From: a virus
DNA length: 64,000 nucleotides
Direction: 5' to 3' (one strand)
IMG/VR virus record: IMGVR_UViG_3300035099_000181
Coordinates: 37,071-101,070 of that record
The notes below the pieces were generated by a model. It did not search any database, was not told where the DNA came from, and worked only from the letters and a program-made list of their open reading frames with translations. The position numbers and the translations under genes are program-made. Positions 3,636 to 19,259 of this stretch are shown here, in pieces (within the stretch, counting starts at the first letter, position 1; every line of letters begins with the position of its first letter).

Positions 3636-6218
3636 ATGAAGCTAATAAAGAAGGGGGACAAGTTTGTTGCCGTGTCCACCTACGCTGAAAAAGACATCCC
3701 AAAAGGGGCGGGGTTCCGCTGGGATCCCGCTAATAGATTTTGGTGGACGAGCGACCTGGCCAAGGCTAACAGCCTAGCCCAGTTCGCCGACGACAATGTG
3801 AGAGCCGAGCTGGAGGCTGCCAAGCGGGAGCGCAAGGCTTCCATTGAAGCATCCAGAGCGAAGGATGCTGGCATCCAAATTCCCGCACCAGATGGTCTCG
3901 CGTATTTACCATTCCAGAAGGCCGGAGTCGCGTATGCTATCGAACACCAAACGACTCTCATGGCCGACGAGATGGGGCTTGGAAAGACCATCCAGGCTAT
4001 CGGAGTCATAAATTCCCTGCCTGAGATCAGATCCGTCCTGGTCATCTGCCCTGCCTCCCTAAAAATCAATTGGAAAAGGGAGTTGGACAAATGGCTCATT
4101 AGACAGCTTTGCGTCGAGATCGCCAACATCGGGAGCTTCCCGTCTTCAGATATCGTGGTGATTAACTACGATATTTTGGCCAAGCACGCCTCAGCAATTC
4201 ACGCCCGGAAGTGGGATCTTCTTGTAATAGATGAGGCTCATTATTGTTTTCCGGAAAATACAAAAGTTAGTACGTCAGAAGGCGAGATTTCTATATCTCA
4301 AATAGTCAACAATAGGATAGACGTGTTAGTTAAGTCTTATAATTTATCTAATAGTGCAATAGAATGGAAACGAATAACGCACTTTCACAAGCACCCTCAA
4401 TATGGGGAACTTGTGAAAATTGTTCACGAGAAAGGAGAATTGATTTGCACAAAAGATCATCAGCTTTGGACTGGGGCTCAATATGAGGAAGCCTCGAAGA
4501 GTTGTGGAAAGAATTTGCAAATATTGCAAGAAACCTTTTCTCCAAATACCTACAGAGTATTCAATACGGACTGCTCCCATAAAATCACTGATCCCAAATC
4601 TTCCGTCATGCCACAAGATAGATCTTGCAATCCCAGAACGAAAGTTAGCAATAGAAATAGACGGGCGATTGCATTCAGTTGCCCGAATGGAGAAATTGGA
4701 TCAAAAGAAGACGGAAGTCTTAAAAGTTCTCGGGTGGTCCGTGTTGAGGTTCTCAAACGAGGAGGTTCTGAACAATCTGAAATTAGTGGTGGAGAAAATT
4801 ATGTTTACTGCTTAAGCATCCAAGATAACGAAAACTTTTTTGCGGATGGGGTATTAGTATCCAACTGCAAAAATCCCAAGGCCCAAAGAACGCAAAATAT
4901 CTTGGGCAAGTGGGATCGGGACCCAGCCAAGGCCATTCCAGCTATCCAAGCCAAACGGAAGCTGTTCCTGTCCGGGACATTCATCACAAATGGCCGTCCT
5001 ATCGAGCTTTGGCCCGTCATCCGCTCGATCCAGGCAGACGGGCTGAAGATGTCATGGGAGCAATACGTTACACGGTATTGCAATGCCCGCCGGAATCGCT
5101 ACGGATGGGATGTAAGCGGAGCGAGCAATCTAGAGGAATTGCAGGAGAAGCTCCGAGCCTCCGTAATGGTCAGACGCTTGAAAAAAGATGTCCTGACTGA
5201 ACTTCCACCCAAGCGGCGGCAAGTGATAGAGCTGCCAGTTAACGGCGTGACTTCAGTTATTCTGGAGCAAAAGGCTTGGGCCGCGCAGGAGGGCAACCTT
5301 CTGAGACTCAAAGCCGCTGTCGAGCTGGCGAAGGCGTCAGAAGACGAGGGCGAGTATGAAGCGGCCGTCAAAGCACTCCGGGGAGGCACAGGAGCTGCGT
5401 TTACGGAGATGTCCGTCCTGCGTCACAAGACGGCACTCGCGAAAGTTCCCATGGTCATCGAGCACATCCAGGAAGCCCTTGAGGCATCCGGCAAAGTGGT
5501 CCTGTTTTGCCATCACAAAGATGTCGCGGCCAAGGTCGCGGCGGAGTTCGACGGGACTTGCGTGACAGTGACCGGTGACGACAAGATCGCCGAGCGGCAG
5601 GCCTGCGTCGACAAGTTCCAAGCGGACCCCAAGGTCCAGCTATTTGTTGGGACGATAGGCGCGGCTGGCCTAGGCATAACTCTGACGGCCTCTGCCCATG
5701 TTGTATTTGCAGAATTGGACTGGGTGCCCGGCAACGTGACCCAGGCCGAGGACAGGCTTCACAGGATCGGGCAAGCAGGGAGCATCTTGGTACAGCACCT
5801 AGTTCTGGAGGGCAGTCTTGACGCGACAATGGCCAAGACCCTGATTGCTAAGCAAGACAATATCGACCGGGCATTGGACAGAGAGTTTGCGGAGCAAGAG
5901 AAGTCCGAGCCTGTGCTGCCTATCGCCACCTCCGATCTTCCCTCGCGCAAGACCGTGGAGCGGGAGGCGAAGGACATGTCCGAGAAGCAGATCAGCGCTA
6001 TTCACAAAGCACTCGGTTTGCTGGCTGGGCGGTGCGACGGGGCGAGGAAGAAGGACGAGATGGGATTTGACCGGCTTGACACACTGATAGGGCGCAATCT
6101 GGCCTACGCCGACAAGTTGACAGCGAAGCAGGCCGCGCTCGGGAGGCGAATCCTACTCAAGTATCACAAACAGCTTCCTGAGGAGGTAGCAACTGCTTGC
6201 AAAAATCCAACAATATGA
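3636..6218 (+). CDS. SNF2/HARP-like SF2 helicase containing an intein
   Basis: ADEMGLGKT (motif I), VICPASL, DEAH (motif II), LSGT, GLGITLT, QAEDRLHRIGQ (motif VI). Confidence 0.92.
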   Translation: MKLIKKGDKFVAVSTYAEKDIPKGAGFRWDPANRFWWTSDLAKANSLAQFADDNVRAELEAAKRERKASIEASRAKDAGIQIPAPDGLAYLPFQKAGVAYAIEHQTTLMADEMGLGKTIQAIGVINSLPEIRSVLVICPASLKINWKRELDKWLIRQLCVEIANIGSFPSSDIVVINYDILAKHASAIHARKWDLLVIDEAHYCFPENTKVSTSEGEISISQIVNNRIDVLVKSYNLSNSAIEWKRITHFHKHPQYGELVKIVHEKGELICTKDHQLWTGAQYEEASKSCGKNLQILQETFSPNTYRVFNTDCSHKITDPKSSVMPQDRSCNPRTKVSNRNRRAIAFSCPNGEIGSKEDGSLKSSRVVRVEVLKRGGSEQSEISGGENYVYCLSIQDNENFFADGVLVSNCKNPKAQRTQNILGKWDRDPAKAIPAIQAKRKLFLSGTFITNGRPIELWPVIRSIQADGLKMSWEQYVTRYCNARRNRYGWDVSGASNLEELQEKLRASVMVRRLKKDVLTELPPKRRQVIELPVNGVTSVILEQKAWAAQEGNLLRLKAAVELAKASEDEGEYEAAVKALRGGTGAAFTEMSVLRHKTALAKVPMVIEHIQEALEASGKVVLFCHHKDVAAKVAAEFDGTCVTVTGDDKIAERQACVDKFQADPKVQLFVGTIGAAGLGITLTASAHVVFAELDWVPGNVTQAEDRLHRIGQAGSILVQHLVLEGSLDATMAKTLIAKQDNIDRALDREFAEQEKSEPVLPIATSDLPSRKTVEREAKDMSEKQISAIHKALGLLAGRCDGARKKDEMGFDRLDTLIGRNLAYADKLTAKQAALGRRILLKYHKQLPEEVATACKNPTI
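4245..4865 (+). mobile_element. Intein (207 aa) inserted just after the DEAH Walker B motif
   Basis: Starts CFPENTKV (block A), CTKDHQLW (block B TxxH), VYCLSIQDNENFFADGVLVSN/C (blocks F/G, +1 Cys); removal restores DEAHY-CKNPKAQRT; AT-richer than its flanks. Confidence 0.9.
4483..4815 (+). CDS. Vsr/DUF559-like PD-(D/E)xK endonuclease overprinted in the +1 frame inside the intein
   Basis: KIDLAIPERKLAIEIDGRLH...DQKKTEVLKVLGWSVLRFSNEEV matches the DUF559/Vsr pattern (D-x8-EIDG-x2-H; D..K...L...GW.VLRF). Confidence 0.75.
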   Translation: MRKPRRVVERICKYCKKPFLQIPTEYSIRTAPIKSLIPNLPSCHKIDLAIPERKLAIEIDGRLHSVARMEKLDQKKTEVLKVLGWSVLRFSNEEVLNNLKLVVEKIMFTA

Positions 6219-11732: not shown

Positions 11733-13055
11733 ATGAAGCAAGAGAGATCTAACCAAGACCAGCCCCAAAGAAGACTTCCCAAGAATCTACCCGATATTGT
11801 CAACTGCTCAATGGGCAAGCATTTCACCCAGGTCCCAAATGACCTCATCAGAGACGAGAGTATATCCATAAAAGCAAGAGGAATTCTGGTGCTCATACTA
11901 AGCAACAGAGAAGGATGGACTACATACCAGAGCCAGATGCAGAAAATCTGTCGTCTCGGACCCCTTGCTTTAAGATCCGGAATGAAGGAACTTGAGAAGG
12001 CGGGATACCTTGCCCGAATGGTCTACCGAGACAAACAAACAAAAGAAATACTTGGGTCCTTCTTAGCATGCGCAGATACGCCTTTCCAATTCCAGATCGG
12101 GGAGTGCCAAGAAGACTTGATGAGCCAAGGATTTGTTATTGGATTGCACCCGAAGAGCCAAGCCAGGCTTGGTTGTGACCTAAAGATTGGTTACCAATCT
12201 TTAGGTAACCAATCTATTGGTGATCAGCCCCTAAGAATACTAACTAATAAGAATATTAATATAGAAAGAAGACTCTCTCTTAAAGAGAGAGACTCTTTCG
12301 AGTCTCATGGAAAATCTCTTCCAGAACAACCTTCTCAATCTTTTCCAAATTTGGAAGAGCCTTCCGGGATTGATTCATCCCCTCCGCTTCGAGAGGCGAA
12401 GCCTCTCTCGCTCCGTGATCAAGAAATCCCTCCTCAGAATGAGGACTCTTTCCCTCTCCGAGACTCTTCCACTTCTGGCACTCAACCCGAGGCTTCTAAG
12501 GAGGTTCCTCAGGAAGAGTCGCCAAAGGCGAAAGATCCTGTCAAGGTAGCTGGCAAGCATCTCATGGCGAACGGGGGTCAGGGATTTTACGCCTTGCTCA
12601 AGATGATCCTGGACAGGCCTATCAAGCAAGAGTTCTGGAAGCATGCCGTCCCGCTCGGAAAAATGGTGATCAACGATAAAATATCTGAGGATAGAATATT
12701 TGGCGTTATTGCCTGGCTGTTCGAGCATCATGGCCAAGAGTTCGTACCGACCGTGTTTAGCGGGTCGGATCTTCGGAATAAGTTCGCTCGGATAGAGCAT
12801 CAGATGAAATCTCAGGTCAAAAGGAACCTTCCCCACTCTAAGGATGCCAAGGTAACGTATGAGGAGAAAATGAGTTATGTCAAGGATGAAGTCTTGTATG
12901 AGAACGGAAGAACATATGGGCCCGAAGATTATCCAGACGGAAAAATCGCCAGAGATGGATTCGGAAGGGCTATCAGACCTGATTTACTTTGCGGGGAAAG
13001 CCTTCGTCCGACAGGCCGGGGAGTCAATAATGGCCAGGTCCGGAATACCAGTTAG
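11733..13055 (+). CDS. Phage replication initiator (replisome organiser, lambda O-like architecture)
   Basis: FTQVPNDLIRDESISIKARGILVLILS...ELEKAGY wHTH N-terminus; internal iterons with AT-rich tract; followed by a DnaC-like gene. Confidence 0.75.
   Translation: MKQERSNQDQPQRRLPKNLPDIVNCSMGKHFTQVPNDLIRDESISIKARGILVLILSNREGWTTYQSQMQKICRLGPLALRSGMKELEKAGYLARMVYRDKQTKEILGSFLACADTPFQFQIGECQEDLMSQGFVIGLHPKSQARLGCDLKIGYQSLGNQSIGDQPLRILTNKNINIERRLSLKERDSFESHGKSLPEQPSQSFPNLEEPSGIDSSPPLREAKPLSLRDQEIPPQNEDSFPLRDSSTSGTQPEASKEVPQEESPKAKDPVKVAGKHLMANGGQGFYALLKMILDRPIKQEFWKHAVPLGKMVINDKISEDRIFGVIAWLFEHHGQEFVPTVFSGSDLRNKFARIEHQMKSQVKRNLPHSKDAKVTYEEKMSYVKDEVLYENGRTYGPEDYPDGKIARDGFGRAIRPDLLCGESLRPTGRGVNNGQVRNTS
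12166..12262. other. Putative replication origin within the initiator gene
   Basis: 13-bp perfect inverted repeat ACCTAAAGATTGG-TTA-CCAATCTTTAGGT, 15-bp periodic GGT(T/A)ACCAATCT repeats, then AT-rich CTAAGAATACTAACTAATAAGAATATTAAT. Confidence 0.6.
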
Positions 13056-13548
13056 ATACAGGGATGCGACATTATCTGACTTTCCAGGTTTTAGTTATGT
13101 TCCTGGTCAATCGTATTACTTGTGTGGGGCTCCTGGAGCAGGCAAGACACATTTGATGTGTGCTCTAGTTCGGGAATTGGCACCCTGGAAGAGATGTTTA
13201 CGCATTCCGATGATAGAGATGCTAAACAACGTCAGAGATTCATATGATCAGAAGTCTCCTGAGCGGGATGATTACGACGATGATGATCCTTCTGGAAATA
13301 TTGTTAACAGAATGTGCAATATGCACATTCTTGCTTTAGATGATATCGGACGGGAGAAGTCTACTGAATGGACTCAGGAGATGTTTTATCTGATTGTAAA
13401 TCGACGTTATGAGGATATGGCCATTACACATTTCGCTAGTAACTTCTCTCTTGGTGAGCTGGCGGATGTGGTTGATGCCAGGATTGCGCGAAGGATTGGA
13501 GAGATGTGCCGTGTGGTCAATCTGAACAAGAGAGTTTCTGATGGCTGA
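12877..13548 (+). CDS. DnaC/IstB-like AAA+ helicase loader (true start may be downstream, e.g. 12955 or 13030)
   Basis: SGIPVRY, GAPGAGKT, LALDDIG, IVNRRYE, ASN, RIARRIGEMC. Confidence 0.88.
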   Translation: MSRMKSCMRTEEHMGPKIIQTEKSPEMDSEGLSDLIYFAGKAFVRQAGESIMARSGIPVRYRDATLSDFPGFSYVPGQSYYLCGAPGAGKTHLMCALVRELAPWKRCLRIPMIEMLNNVRDSYDQKSPERDDYDDDDPSGNIVNRMCNMHILALDDIGREKSTEWTQEMFYLIVNRRYEDMAITHFASNFSLGELADVVDARIARRIGEMCRVVNLNKRVSDG

Positions 13549-15070
13549 TCCCGATATTGTTAGAACATTGATGGCGGCCACGGTCATGGATACTAAGTTT
13601 TTGAAAGGATTGCGTAAGGTCTGGCGCGATGACCTATCCGGAGACACATGGGGATGGTTGGGAAACGAGTGCTTTAGGCATCTCAAGGAGCATGGGAAGG
13701 CCCCAGGCAGGGACATACAGCTTGCATGGGCCACTATTCCAGACCCGGTCCTCAAGCGGGACATGGAACGGTTCCTGGCAAAGCTGTCCAATGAATGGGA
13801 TGATTGGGAAGCCAACAATGCATACAGTGTGGAAGCCTTGCTGAAGGAGGCCGAGAAGTACTTCGCCCAGCAGCTTTATCTGATCAAGGCTGCCGAGCTG
13901 GAGGCTGCTGCTGAGGCAGGGGACATTGAGGCTGCCGACGAGATAGTTAGTGAGATGAAGCCGCCGAAGTTGTCTATGGCTGTGTCCATTGTGCTGTCCG
14001 AGAATCCCAACATCATAAGGGAAGCTTTTGAGCATAAGGTACAATCTCTCGTTGGCCTTGGTGGGGCGTTTCAAGAGCTTGTCGGGGAGCAAGTTGTTAA
14101 GGACTCATTCGTGGCTTTTCTTGGCAAAGAGAAGGTGGGTAAGTCTTGGATTTTGCAAGCCCTCGCCTTCAGCGCCGCGAAGGCCAGGCAGAATGTCATG
14201 TACTGCCAATGTGGAGATCTGAGCCAGCGGCAGCAAGTATCCCGTTTTTCCATACAGCTTTCTGGGAGGTCTAACAGGTCTAAATATAACAGGACACAGC
14301 TTTTGCCTGTCCCTGACTGCTTCCTCAACCAGACAAACGAATGCAATAGGGAAGAGCGTTTGTGTTCTGTATCCGTTGTAGATGACTTGACTTTCAAGCC
14401 GTATCCAAAGTTGGCCGCGTTTGATTCCAAAAAAGGCTATATCCCGTGCTTCAGGGACTGACCGGATTATAGGTTCTCTTCCTGGTTCGAGGAGGAAAAG
14501 CAGTGCCTGGATTTGGGATGGGAAGAGGCTCAGGAAATTTGGAGAAGGTTTGATTTGGCGATAGGCAACAGGCTTCGTTTGTTCTGGGGAGCGACGAGGA
14601 CGGTGACGGCGCGGGACGTGGATGCCGAACTGGATAGGCTGAAGGACAGCATGGGGTGGATGCCGGGCATTATCGTCATTGACTATGCGGACATACTCGC
14701 TCCTGAGTCTGGATCTGGCAGAGACTTCAGGCACCAGGAAAACGCGCGATGGGAGGCACTCAGGAGGCTGTCGCAGGATTGGGAATGCTGCGTCGTGACG
14801 GCCACACAGTCAACGCGGGAGACTTACCGAAAGCGCCTGATATCGGAAGGTGATGCGAGCGAAGACAAGCGGAAGGCTGCTCATGTCACGGCGATGTTCG
14901 GCCTGAACAAGGATGCTCATGACAGGAGGAGAGGGTGGATGCGGATCAATCCAGTATTCGTTAGGGATGATGACTACGATCCTTTTGATCAGGTTGCGGT
15001 CCTTCAGTTACTGCAGCGCGGAATGCCGAATTTGGGGAGCTGGTGGTGGATGAAAAAATCAGAGGAATGA
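13541..15070 (+). CDS. DnaB-like replicative helicase with one in-frame TGA (14459-14461); candidate selenocysteine/readthrough, 509 aa if read through
   Basis: ORFs 13541-14461 (Walker A GKEKVGKS) and 14513-15070 (Walker B IVIDYAD, VVTATQ) share a frame and are separated only by TGA in ...GYIPCFRD*PDYRFSSWF... Confidence 0.8.
14474..14499 (+). promoter_or_regulatory. Candidate bacterial SECIS hairpin downstream of the in-frame UGA
   Basis: UCUUCCU/AGGAGGA stem (7 bp incl. one GU, extendable) with apical loop GGUUCG starting 22 nt after the UGA. Confidence 0.5.
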
Positions 15071-15500: not shown

Positions 15501-18500
15501 ATGAACTTTTGTCATCTTCATGTTCATGATCAGTATTCACAGCTTGATGGATACGGTTCAGCAGAGCAGTATGCTGATGAAGCATCTCGTTTAGAATTCA
15601 CCCATCTTGCTCTGACTAATCATGGAAATGTCGATGGGCTGATTAAATTTCAGAAAGCTTGCTTAGGTAAGGATATAGTGCCTATTTTGGGAAGCGAGTT
15701 ATATGTGGTGCCTGATATTTCTATTAAGGAGCCAAAGGAAAAACGCTATCATATTACTGTTCTGGTGAAGAACAATGAAGGCTTTTCTAATCTTCTGCGA
15801 ATGCTCACTAAGGCCAACTTGGAAGGTTTTTATAAGCGCCCTCGTGTTAGTCCGGACATGCTTTTGAAATATTGTGGTGGCCTGATTTTTATGACCGCTT
15901 GCACATCTTCTATAGTCTATATGTCAAAGGGTAGGGAGCTGGTTAATGAGCTTGGAGATGCTACTGGGGGAAATATCTATCTTGAAATAATGCCTCACGA
16001 TTATTCTGATCAAAAGAAGTTGAATAGATTGCTGCTGGTTATGTCCAAGAAGGATGGATTGCCTTTAGTGGCCACTAACGATTGTCATTATCCTTTGTCT
16101 AAGCATACAAAAGTTCAGGAAGTTCTTCTGGCTATTCAGCGTAAGGCGAAATGGATGGATAAAGATAGATGGCGATTCGAGATAGATGGTCTTTATCTTA
16201 GGACCGAGAAGGAAATGGAAGAGGCATTTCTGAGGCAGGGTATAATTCCACAGAGATTGTTTGCGGAGGCTTTGGTTAGAACTTCAGAAATAGCAAGTAA
16301 ATGTGGTGGATATAAAATAGAAAAACGCTCTGTCATTCTGCCTAAAGTCTCGGGATACGAGGATAGGGATGAGACAGAACTGATGTGGGAAATAGTTAAT
16401 AGAGGCCTTAAGGAGCGCCTCCTTGTTCCGGGAACAATAAGCAGGGATCAGTTGCCTGCTTATCGTTCTCGGATTAAGGAAGAGATGGATCTTATCTGCG
16501 AACTTGGCTTTCAAGGATATTTTCTAATAGTTTGGGAGCTGATAGATTGGTGCAAAAAGAATGATATTATGACTGGACCTGGCCGAGGGTCTTCCGGAGG
16601 CTCTCTTGTGGCATATCTTATGCGAATAACTGACGTAGATCCTATAAAGTATGGTCTTGTGTTCGCAAGATTTATCTCTCCTGCCAGGATAGATTTGCCA
16701 GATATAGATATGGACTTTGAGGACATAAAGCGAGATAGGATAAGGAAACACCTTGAAGATAATTATGGTAAGTTCAATGTGTCTGGACTTTCTACCTTTG
16801 CGAAAATGAAGGGTCGCGGAGCTATACGGGATGTAGCAAGAGTTTTTGATGTTCCTATTTTGGATACAGACAAATGCGCTAAGGCAATAGTTGTAAGATC
16901 TGGCGGAGATTTTAGATCCTCCTATACGATAGAAGATGCCTGCAAGACCTTCGGCGATGCAATAGATTTCAATAAAAAATATCCAGAAGTTGTAAGTATA
17001 GCACAGGATTTGGAGGGGACACTAAGGGCTAGTGGGCAGCACGCAGCAGCTATTTGCATCTCTTCCGAGGATCTGAGAGAGGGCCTTTGGTGTCATCTTT
17101 GCAATAGGAAAGGAGTGGTTGTCGCTAATTGGGAAAAGTCAGATGCCGAATATATAGGGCTGATGAAATTGGATATTCTGGGTCTTACGGCTTTGACTAT
17201 ACTTAATTACACTAAGAAACTTCTTAAGGAGAGGCGGGGGGTCTCTATAGTGTTTGATGATATACCTCTGGATGACGAGAAGGTTCTTAGCGAGATAGCT
17301 GCTGGCAATAATGTTGGTGCTTTTCAGATCGGTTCTTCGGGTCTGATGAAACTGTGTAGGGAAATGAAGGTGAAGGAATTTAACGACATAGTCCTTGCAT
17401 CAGCCTTATTCAGACCTGGGACATTGCGCTCGGGAATGGTAGAGGAATTTATACAGAGAAGGACAGGGGCAGCCCCTGTGAAGTATATTCATCCATTGCT
17501 TGAGCCTTTAACTAAAGAGACACTGGGAATTATTCTGTATCAAGAACAGGTCATGTGGCTTATGTACGAGCTTGGTGGGTTGGGGTGGAAGACATGTGAC
17601 ACTGTTCGGAAGGTTATCAGTAAGTCACAAGGTGATGAATTGTTTGGAAGGTTCAAGCAGCTATTTATAGATGGCTGCCAAGAACGGAAGACTCTTTCAG
17701 AGAAAGAGGCAGATAAGGTTTGGGATCAGTTGAGCAGCTTTGGAAGTTATTCATTCAACAAGAGTCATGCTGTAGAATATTCTCTTATAACCTTTTGGAT
17801 GATGTGGCTTAAGGCGCATTATCCAAAAGAGTACTTATGTGCAAGTCTGACATTTACAGGAGCAAATGATAAGGCTAGCTATATAGATGAAGCCAGAAGG
17901 CTGGGGCTATCAATAGAACTTCCGCGTGTTGGTATTTCCAAAGCAACTGAGTGGATTTCCTCTATTGCTGATGATGGGAAAATATTTGCCCCATTTTCAG
18001 AGATTAAAGGCATAGGAGAGGCTTCCGCTAGGCAACTGGAAAAAGCCAAATTGGGTTTTAAGAAGGGCTTTTTTAGAAGTAGAGAATTTCAGTTTGGTGA
18101 AGGCCGTAGGCCAAACAGCATGATTATGTCTGTTCTGGAAGAGATTGGTGCCTTGGGTAACAAGGAGCTTACTGATTCAGAACTGGAGAAAGCAAACAAA
18201 TATTTTGATTTTGATCTATCAAAAGATAAGATGGGTAAATACTCCAAATTATTTCAGAGGCTGAAAGAAAGCATGATTCTTAGCTGTGTGAAAGACATAG
18301 ACTATCAAAAGCCAAGCACAGATGAGCATTATTATTTTGGGCAAATGACCGAGGTGAAATTTGGATATAGGCAGGCAGTCTTAAAGGCACAAAAGAGCGG
18401 AATGGGCGATATTTCTGGCACAGATAATCTTGGCGGGGTGTATGGCAATTTCAAGGACGAAACAGATTTTACTATGCTGATTTTTGGAGGAGAGCTTTAT

Positions 18501-19259
18501 CAAAGAAAAAAGGCAGATGTAGAGCATTGTGCTGGTGATTGGATTTTAGCTAAAGCTAATCATCCTAAACGGAAGACTGCAATATTGGCTAACGATGCTT
18601 GGATAGGAAAAGAACTTTTATCCTGTGATTTGGAAGGTTGTAACATTGAACTTATTTCTAATAGTCATCCTTGTGTCTTACCAAATATAGATAAATGTTC
18701 ATTGTGCTCTTTAAGATCAGAATGCAAAAGACCTGTTCCAGCCTCTCCCGGTAAATATAATGTCATGCTGATAGGCGAAGCGCCAGGAAAAGAGGAGGAT
18801 CTTAAAGGGATAGGATTTATAGGCAAGGCAGGGAGCGAAGTGCTGTGGCCTGAGCTGGCTAAGTACCGTCTTGATAGAGAGATGTTTCATATCACCAATA
18901 TTGTAAAGTGCTGGCCAAGTAATACAAAAACTCCTTCTAAAAAGCACATATTTGAGTGCTCTTCTATTATCAAGGAAGAGATATCCTCCGTTAGGCCAGT
19001 TCTCGCCTTGGCCTTCGGGAATACTAATGTTAAGTTCTTCAAAGGTTTGGATAGTGGGATTATTGGCCTTAACGCCACGACGGAATGGTCTAATGAATAT
19101 GGAATGTGGATATGCTGGTGCATTCATCCGGCTGCCGTTCTTTATCAGCAGCCTAACTTAGATCTGTTTTCTGCTGGAATAGAGAATTTTGTTAAGAAGC
19201 TGAGTTATATTGCTGGAGATAAGTTGTCCTTTCCTTTTACAAGAAAGAGAGAAGAATGA
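15501..19259 (+). CDS. dnaE: DNA polymerase III alpha subunit fused to a C-terminal family-4 uracil-DNA glycosylase domain
   Basis: PHP HLHVHDQYS, GPGRGSSGGSLVAY, PDIDMD, KLDILGL, YSFNKSHAVEY; C-terminal CSLC...GEAPG...TNIVKC...C...HPA (UDG4). Confidence 0.93.
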   Translation: MNFCHLHVHDQYSQLDGYGSAEQYADEASRLEFTHLALTNHGNVDGLIKFQKACLGKDIVPILGSELYVVPDISIKEPKEKRYHITVLVKNNEGFSNLLRMLTKANLEGFYKRPRVSPDMLLKYCGGLIFMTACTSSIVYMSKGRELVNELGDATGGNIYLEIMPHDYSDQKKLNRLLLVMSKKDGLPLVATNDCHYPLSKHTKVQEVLLAIQRKAKWMDKDRWRFEIDGLYLRTEKEMEEAFLRQGIIPQRLFAEALVRTSEIASKCGGYKIEKRSVILPKVSGYEDRDETELMWEIVNRGLKERLLVPGTISRDQLPAYRSRIKEEMDLICELGFQGYFLIVWELIDWCKKNDIMTGPGRGSSGGSLVAYLMRITDVDPIKYGLVFARFISPARIDLPDIDMDFEDIKRDRIRKHLEDNYGKFNVSGLSTFAKMKGRGAIRDVARVFDVPILDTDKCAKAIVVRSGGDFRSSYTIEDACKTFGDAIDFNKKYPEVVSIAQDLEGTLRASGQHAAAICISSEDLREGLWCHLCNRKGVVVANWEKSDAEYIGLMKLDILGLTALTILNYTKKLLKERRGVSIVFDDIPLDDEKVLSEIAAGNNVGAFQIGSSGLMKLCREMKVKEFNDIVLASALFRPGTLRSGMVEEFIQRRTGAAPVKYIHPLLEPLTKETLGIILYQEQVMWLMYELGGLGWKTCDTVRKVISKSQGDELFGRFKQLFIDGCQERKTLSEKEADKVWDQLSSFGSYSFNKSHAVEYSLITFWMMWLKAHYPKEYLCASLTFTGANDKASYIDEARRLGLSIELPRVGISKATEWISSIADDGKIFAPFSEIKGIGEASARQLEKAKLGFKKGFFRSREFQFGEGRRPNSMIMSVLEEIGALGNKELTDSELEKANKYFDFDLSKDKMGKYSKLFQRLKESMILSCVKDIDYQKPSTDEHYYFGQMTEVKFGYRQAVLKAQKSGMGDISGTDNLGGVYGNFKDETDFTMLIFGGELYQRKKADVEHCAGDWILAKANHPKRKTAILANDAWIGKELLSCDLEGCNIELISNSHPCVLPNIDKCSLCSLRSECKRPVPASPGKYNVMLIGEAPGKEEDLKGIGFIGKAGSEVLWPELAKYRLDREMFHITNIVKCWPSNTKTPSKKHIFECSSIIKEEISSVRPVLALAFGNTNVKFFKGLDSGIIGLNATTEWSNEYGMWICWCIHPAAVLYQQPNLDLFSAGIENFVKKLSYIAGDKLSFPFTRKREE

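Follow-up and report, generated by a model that had tools for sequence, protein, structure and literature searches.

The DNA analyzed here, which we call the window, is a stretch of 64,000 nucleotides (bases 37071-101070) of a 101,070-bp IMG/VR virus record from an uncultured phage. It carries the phage's own two-domain replicative helicase gene of the DnaB/T4 gp41 type, at window positions 13541-15070, and this gene is cut by a single in-frame TGA at 14459-14461, in a column that is an invariant cysteine in the helicase family. We favor the reading in which the TGA is a nonsense allele of recent origin that may be leaky or tolerated, and give this reading about an even chance of being correct. 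Decoding of the UGA as selenocysteine (Sec), which was the original prediction, is a tentative second reading. The features of the locus, in window coordinates, are as follows.

12877..13548, + strand: DnaC/IstB-like AAA+ helicase-loader gene (Pfam IstB_IS21 1.3e-7, Bac_DnaA 8e-5)
13541..14458, + strand: first part of the helicase gene, with the helical N-terminal domain, Walker A and most of the cysteine-bearing insertion, assigned by collinear alignment with full-length homologues
14123-14146, + strand: Walker A motif GKEKVGKS, conserved, before the internal TGA
14318..14320, + strand: TGC, invariant Cys260, first of the four-cysteine cluster (Cys in 92/92 and 81/81 rows)
14342..14344, + strand: TGC, invariant Cys268 (homologue alignment and both locus scans)
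14447..14449, + strand: TGC, invariant Cys303 (homologue alignment and both locus scans)
14459..14461, + strand: in-frame TGA followed by C, position 307, the fourth invariant cysteine column
14462..15070, + strand: second part of the helicase gene, with the remaining RecA-like core, a conserved EDKRK..H block and the true stop, TGA 15068-15070
14477..14496, + strand: hairpin UCUUCCU-GGUUCG-AGGAGGA, 7 bp with one G-U pair, -8.5 kcal/mol, encoding S-S-W-F-E-E-E, with a Shine-Dalgarno-like 3' arm
14513..14515, + strand: in-frame TTG, the IMG gene-call start of a 185-aa C-terminal ORF (P0175), 17 nt after AGGAGG
14555..14557, + strand: in-frame TTG, the Logan gene-call start (171 aa, P0121), with GGAG 10 nt upstream
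14675-14692, + strand: Walker B motif VIDYAD, conserved, after the internal TGA

The open reading frame 13541..14461 encodes 306 amino acids and ends at the internal TGA, beyond which that frame has no further stop until the TGA at 15068-15070; the read-through product is 509 amino acids long. These coordinates agree with the earlier claim that the Walker A half and the Walker B half share one frame and are parted only by the TGA at 14459-14461. The second part of the gene scored 2e-4 with Pfam DnaB_C and 1.3e-18 with phrog_19, described as 'DnaB-like replicative helicase'. Expressed in bits, the DnaB_C match (PF03796) was 21.2 for the C-terminal half and 19.8 in a six-frame search, against a cut-off of 27. 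In the PDB, the family profile matched chains of T4 gp41 and DnaB. An AlphaFold (AF2) model made from 35 sequences had a mean pLDDT of 90.8, and a Foldseek search with this model returned full-length matches to T4 gp41 and bacterial DnaB with E-values of 3e-20 to 1e-16. A RecA-like core with Walker A and B motifs and a helical N-terminal domain, the combination that marks DnaB/gp41-type (SF4) helicases, is present. Alignment with homologues showed that every family-invariant residue encoded 3' of the TGA is kept in the phage gene.

The phage helicase has a two-domain architecture like that of T4 gp41 and bacterial DnaB (PDB 8GAO, 8DTP, 4ESV, and 2R6A). However, it is only ∼13-16% identical to these proteins, and it has between core strands a four-cysteine insertion of ∼50 residues, for which the solved structures have no sequence match.

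The 101,070-bp record has a 120-bp direct terminal repeat, and nearly all of its genes are on the + strand. The TGA stop of the loader gene overlaps the start of the helicase gene (ATGGCTGA), which couples the two genes in translation. On the 3' side of the helicase gene lie genes for a DnaE polymerase with a fused UDG domain, for a clamp-loader-like ATPase, and for a RecA-like protein; these neighbors, together with the loader, indicate that the helicase is that of a phage-encoded replisome. A six-frame search of the whole record found no second DnaB-like gene, and no other interrupted gene was found in its 101 kb. On these grounds and because of the terminal repeats, the record looks like that of a replicating phage, which should need its helicase.

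The neighboring polymerase is a DnaE-type DNA polymerase III alpha (15501-19259, + strand) with PHP, NTPase, and finger domains. Its C terminus is fused to a uracil-DNA glycosylase superfamily domain (residues 1085-1218, PF03167 4.5e-20), and its matches in cultured phages span residues 1-933 or fewer. Elsewhere in the window, a SNF2-family helicase gene (3636-6218, + strand) is split by an intein splicing domain (PF14890, residues 217-410). A sugar-modification cluster (32904-58280, + strand) encodes two B12-binding radical SAM enzymes, a SPASM radical SAM enzyme, an AsnB-type amidotransferase, two DegT aminotransferases, a carbamoyltransferase, and a class-III aminotransferase, a gene content that hints at an anaerobic host. 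The first 2000 nucleotides (1-2000) are apparently non-coding on both strands and repeat-rich, with near-identical peptide-like strings in several frames, and very stable hairpins (10-12 bp, loop GAGAAG, -19 to -22.5 kcal/mol) lie near 1108 (- strand) and 1890 (+ strand).

The family to which the helicase belongs is large and unstudied and comes from uncultured phages. Metagenomes contain over 200 full-length homologues of ∼505-515 amino acids, and an exhaustive protein search gave 1,382 representative clusters (E ≤ 1e-3); no full-length relative was found in cultured phages. The family insertion of ∼50 residues lies inside the ATPase core and contains four invariant cysteines, C260, C268, C303, and column 307. 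A Cys-rich insertion had been described at the outset, and the cysteines of its DC (C260), EC (C268), and PC (C303) motifs and the TGA column (307) are indeed invariant in the family, but that of its LC motif (C275) is not. The spacing of the last cysteine pair varies among homologues (C-x2-5-C), which is more like a metal-binding loop than a fixed redox motif. Judged from this sequence pattern, the four cysteines are likely to form a metal-binding cluster, probably a structural one.

The expectation that homologues would have cysteine at the TGA column was borne out. Cysteine is found there in 34/34 aligned homologues, in 90 of the 91 loci taken from genomes of IMG/VR and GTDB (TGT in 60, TGC in 30, and one gap), and in 80/80 loci of a second scan. 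The two scans overlap in part; counted together they give 171 related loci (91 + 80), with Cys in 170 and a gap in one. A stop at the TGA column or elsewhere inside the gene was seen in 0 of the 34 homologues and 0 of the 171 loci, the stops flagged in the locus scans being the genes' own ends. Libraries of 5.8 billion and 1.84 billion proteins contained no shortened N-terminal form. P0244 ends just past the fourth cysteine, so that it has no stop there, and its end is probably a cut at a contig end. The phage gene thus has an in-frame UGA aligned with the cysteine of its homologues, one of the marks of a selenoprotein gene.

A second such mark, a conserved or covarying UGA and hairpin, was not found among relatives that are at most ∼55% identical. 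The original prediction had called for a search for UGA plus hairpin in close relatives; 0/171 loci carry a UGA, a comparison that has little power because the nearest relative is only ∼55% identical to the phage helicase. A single-protein scan of JGI metagenome contigs gave no closer relative, and exact-pattern scans of metagenome and viral contigs, with N at the third base of the codon, gave no match; the scanned sets may omit the window's own record and near-identical ones. Two IMG/VR scans and one GTDB genome scan returned distant relatives only, all with Cys.

Within the helicase gene 202 single-base changes would make a stop, 11 of them at Cys codons and 4 at invariant cysteines. A random nonsense change would fall on an invariant cysteine ∼2% of the time, and the coincidence of TGA and Cys is unlikely to be due to chance.

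Both JGI/IMG and Logan assemblies yield exactly the same 306-aa shortened product, and a 23,430-bp Logan contig again carries the C-terminal ORF, identical except for the chosen TTG start. An assembler artefact is unlikely given the same stop in two assemblies, and the Logan agreement shows the TGA to be the majority sequence; the two assemblies may share reads, and their agreement does not amount to persistence across samples. Elsewhere in the genome TGA is a normal stop, as had been claimed, and in fact the commonest one, terminating 53 of the 103 long + strand ORFs. Genome-wide recoding of TGA was considered and rejected, since TGA is the commonest stop, the genome has no tRNAs, and other same-frame junctions part unrelated families. 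The helicase TGA has a following C, a context shared by 4 of the 58 other real TGA stops in a genome with 21% C; the real TGA stops of this genome avoid a following C. UGA-C is the weakest, leakiest termination context in E. coli.

The hairpin just 3' of the UGA was recovered with the sequence and loop spacing that had been proposed. It is the minimum-energy fold, with a stem 15 nt downstream of the UGA and a loop that begins 22 nt after the UGA and starts with GGU. The consensus for bacterial SECIS elements comprises a loop of 3-9 nt, a stem of 4-16 bp, and a free energy of -7.5 kcal/mol or lower (PMC13188914, Fig. 2 legend), along with a G in the first two loop positions, a common N1-G-[G|U]-N-N2-N pattern, and a UGA spacing of 16-37 nt (PMC13188914). 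Every item of this published consensus is satisfied by the hairpin, which has a 7-bp stem, a 6-nt loop, pairable N1 and N2, 22-nt spacing, and an energy of -8.5 kcal/mol. The SECIS resemblance noted at the outset therefore stands, with weak specificity.

We determined how often such hairpins occur with a scan that counts perfect stems only. At random positions of this genome 3.5% passed loose criteria and 0.45% passed with the strict loop pattern. Among homologues, examined at their own Cys codon, 4/90 passed the loose and 1/90 the strict criteria. For TGA stops of long ORFs the loose pass rate was 2/59, and the helicase TGA was the only one to pass strictly. The stability of the hairpin did not exceed that of dinucleotide shuffles (z -0.9 to -1.5). 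When the peptide PDYRFSSWFEEEK... was recoded with synonymous codons drawn from the codon usage of the genome, 12% (strict) to 17% (loose) of the draws had a compliant hairpin. UCY serine codons and the GAG glutamate codons that follow them are complementary by nature, and so the encoded peptide largely accounts for the hairpin. We rejected the idea that the hairpin had forced odd residues on the protein, because E319 and F316, which it encodes, are ordinary for the family and lie inside its normal variation. The hairpin is only mildly unusual, and on the shuffle z-scores and the synonymous resampling it is supportive of Sec but weakly so. An Rfam search of the sequence gave no match to SECIS or any other family. 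No other Sec candidate was found in the genome; the few remaining TGAs with hairpins either lie in wrong frames or belong to repeat-rich stretches that do not code for protein.

If the TGA is a nonsense allele, its simplest origin would be a single C-to-A change from TGC, the codon that encodes 8/10 of the other cysteines of the helicase gene. Most ribosomes would then terminate at the internal TGA and release the 306-aa fragment, and full-length helicase, if any, would come from low-level readthrough at the weak UGA-C. Helicase activity might instead be supplied by host DnaB loaded by the phage DnaC-like loader, a use of the host protein that is conceivable because the DnaC/IstB-like loader gene adjoins the helicase gene, or co-infecting wild-type genomes might help. 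The hairpin would arise for the most part because Ser codons rich in pyrimidines are followed by Glu codons rich in purines.

Several observations count for a nonsense allele. No relative has a stop, the hairpin is unexceptional against shuffles and resampling, and between 1 and 4 of 90 homologues with Cys also have such a hairpin. The phage has no Sec genes, there is no Rfam match, and the cysteine spacing is variable. Against it, an invariant cysteine is struck in only 4/202 mutational paths and the C-to-A change is a transversion. The strict hairpin, at 0.45% of random positions and as the sole pass among 59 TGA stops, also has to be set against this reading, as do the apparently replicating phage, the intact downstream residues, and the presence of the stop in a second assembly. 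A nonsense mutation or sequencing error had been named as the main alternative to Sec when the site was first described. A nonsense change from TGC or TGT to TGA stays at least as likely as Sec, whereas pure sequencing error is unlikely, the Logan assembly repeating the stop.

Under the Sec reading, host SelB and tRNA-Sec would decode the UGA by means of the in-ORF SECIS hairpin, and Sec would replace the fourth cysteine. We regard this as possible, though somewhat less likely than a nonsense allele. Pairing of Sec with Cys at an invariant Cys column is the usual sign by which a selenoprotein is recognized (strategy in PMC13188914), and this part of the proposal and the fit to the SECIS consensus have both held. 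The rarity of the strict pattern (0.45% of random positions, 1/90 homologues, and one pass among 59 TGA stops) and of UGA-C (4/58 other real stops) point the same way, as do the intactness of the rest of the gene, its status as the sole DnaB-like helicase of a terminally repeated genome, and the repetition of the stop in the Logan assembly. However, the case is a singleton. No relative found, the nearest being ∼55% identical, has a UGA, so that neither conservation nor covariation supports it, and the hairpin is thermodynamically unexceptional and largely explained by the encoded peptide. The site also looks like a structural metal site and not a redox center. Sec as a structural-metal ligand in a helicase has no precedent in the 2026 selenoproteome review or the BSepDB paper, neither of which mentions phages or helicases. 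The site may be pre-adapted for Sec, in that the S-S-W-x-E-E coding of the family readily forms such a hairpin; if TGC changed to TGA in a host able to insert Sec, the change could be rescued at once.

No tRNA, suppressor tRNA, tRNA-Sec, selB, or selD was found in the phage genome, and any Sec insertion would therefore rely on the host. Cultured-phage relatives, DnaE, MAG labels, and the protein atlas pointed to no host, which weighs against Sec. Relatives of the helicase occur in MAGs labelled Deferribacterales, Clostridia, Cloacimonadota, Bacteroidota, Dehalococcoidia, and others. These anaerobic-type labels and the B12-radical-SAM genes of the phage, which count in favor of Sec, suggest an anaerobic setting and nothing more. 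Sec use is common in anaerobic-type habitats.

The arrangement resembles bacterial genes with a SECIS inside the ORF, of which E. coli fdhF is the prototype. Alike are the in-frame UGA at a position where homologues have Cys and the small 3' hairpin with GGU at the start of its loop and a spacing within 16-37 nt. The stem lies 15 nt from the UGA in the phage gene and 11 nt from it in E. coli fdhF. Unlike the bacterial selenoprotein genes, the phage case comes without a second Sec-bearing member or covariation, and its candidate Sec is in a four-cysteine metal-type cluster of a helicase instead of a redox active site.

PMC8310308 reviews viral selenoproteins, which are glutathione peroxidases of poxviruses. 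In those of molluscum contagiosum and fowlpox viruses, UGA is read as Sec by host machinery, and the fowlpox SECIS is inside the coding region (PMC8310308). The phage helicase gene would share with them a virus-encoded gene in which host machinery reads UGA as Sec, but the poxvirus enzymes belong to eukaryotic viruses, use a eukaryote-type SECIS, and are classical redox selenoenzymes captured from the host.

Functional readthrough without Sec, by a near-cognate Trp or Cys tRNA, or a split gene restarting at a TTG, is unlikely. The weak UGA-C context, which real stops of the genome avoid, would suit readthrough, but tryptophan could not stand in for an invariant metal ligand. The Qbeta A1 readthrough protein is a product of leaky UGA termination in which part of the ribosomes continue. 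The phage UGA is likewise in a weak context; in Qbeta A1, however, readthrough adds an extension in which the inserted residue is indifferent, whereas the helicase codon is at an invariant ligand position of a catalytic domain. As for a restart, the downstream half had been said to have no well-spaced ATG or GTG start. It has no nearby in-frame ATG or GTG, as stated, but gene callers use the in-frame TTGs at 14513 and 14555, which are preceded by AGGAGG (14490-14495) and GGAG (14541-14544). The 17-nt spacing from Shine-Dalgarno sequence to TTG is poor, however, and the locus scans contain no split relative. Restarting at either TTG would remove the invariant W315 and a core β-strand, making a split helicase unlikely.

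Least probable of all, and very improbable, is a sequencing or assembly error in which an artefactual A stands in place of the C or T of a Cys codon: TGA is one base from TGC, but the exact 306-aa product is present in both JGI/IMG and Logan, the C-terminal ORF is found again on the 23,430-bp Logan contig, and no gene is broken elsewhere in the 101-kb record.

If the TGA is a nonsense allele, the finding is an ordinary one, a snapshot of a damaged or leaky gene in a large family of DnaB-like phage helicases with a Cys4 insert. If instead Sec is inserted, this would be the first helicase selenoprotein and a phage-encoded selenoprotein, of which there is none in the 2026 selenoproteome review, the BSepDB paper, or PMC8310308. 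Sec would then act, as it rarely does, as a ligand in an apparently structural metal site, the fourth in the Cys4 cluster, and the DNA replication of the phage would be tied to the selenium supply and Sec machinery of its host. The gene could thus show the birth of a selenoprotein, in which a Cys-to-UGA change is rescued by a hairpin that was already likely from the protein sequence.
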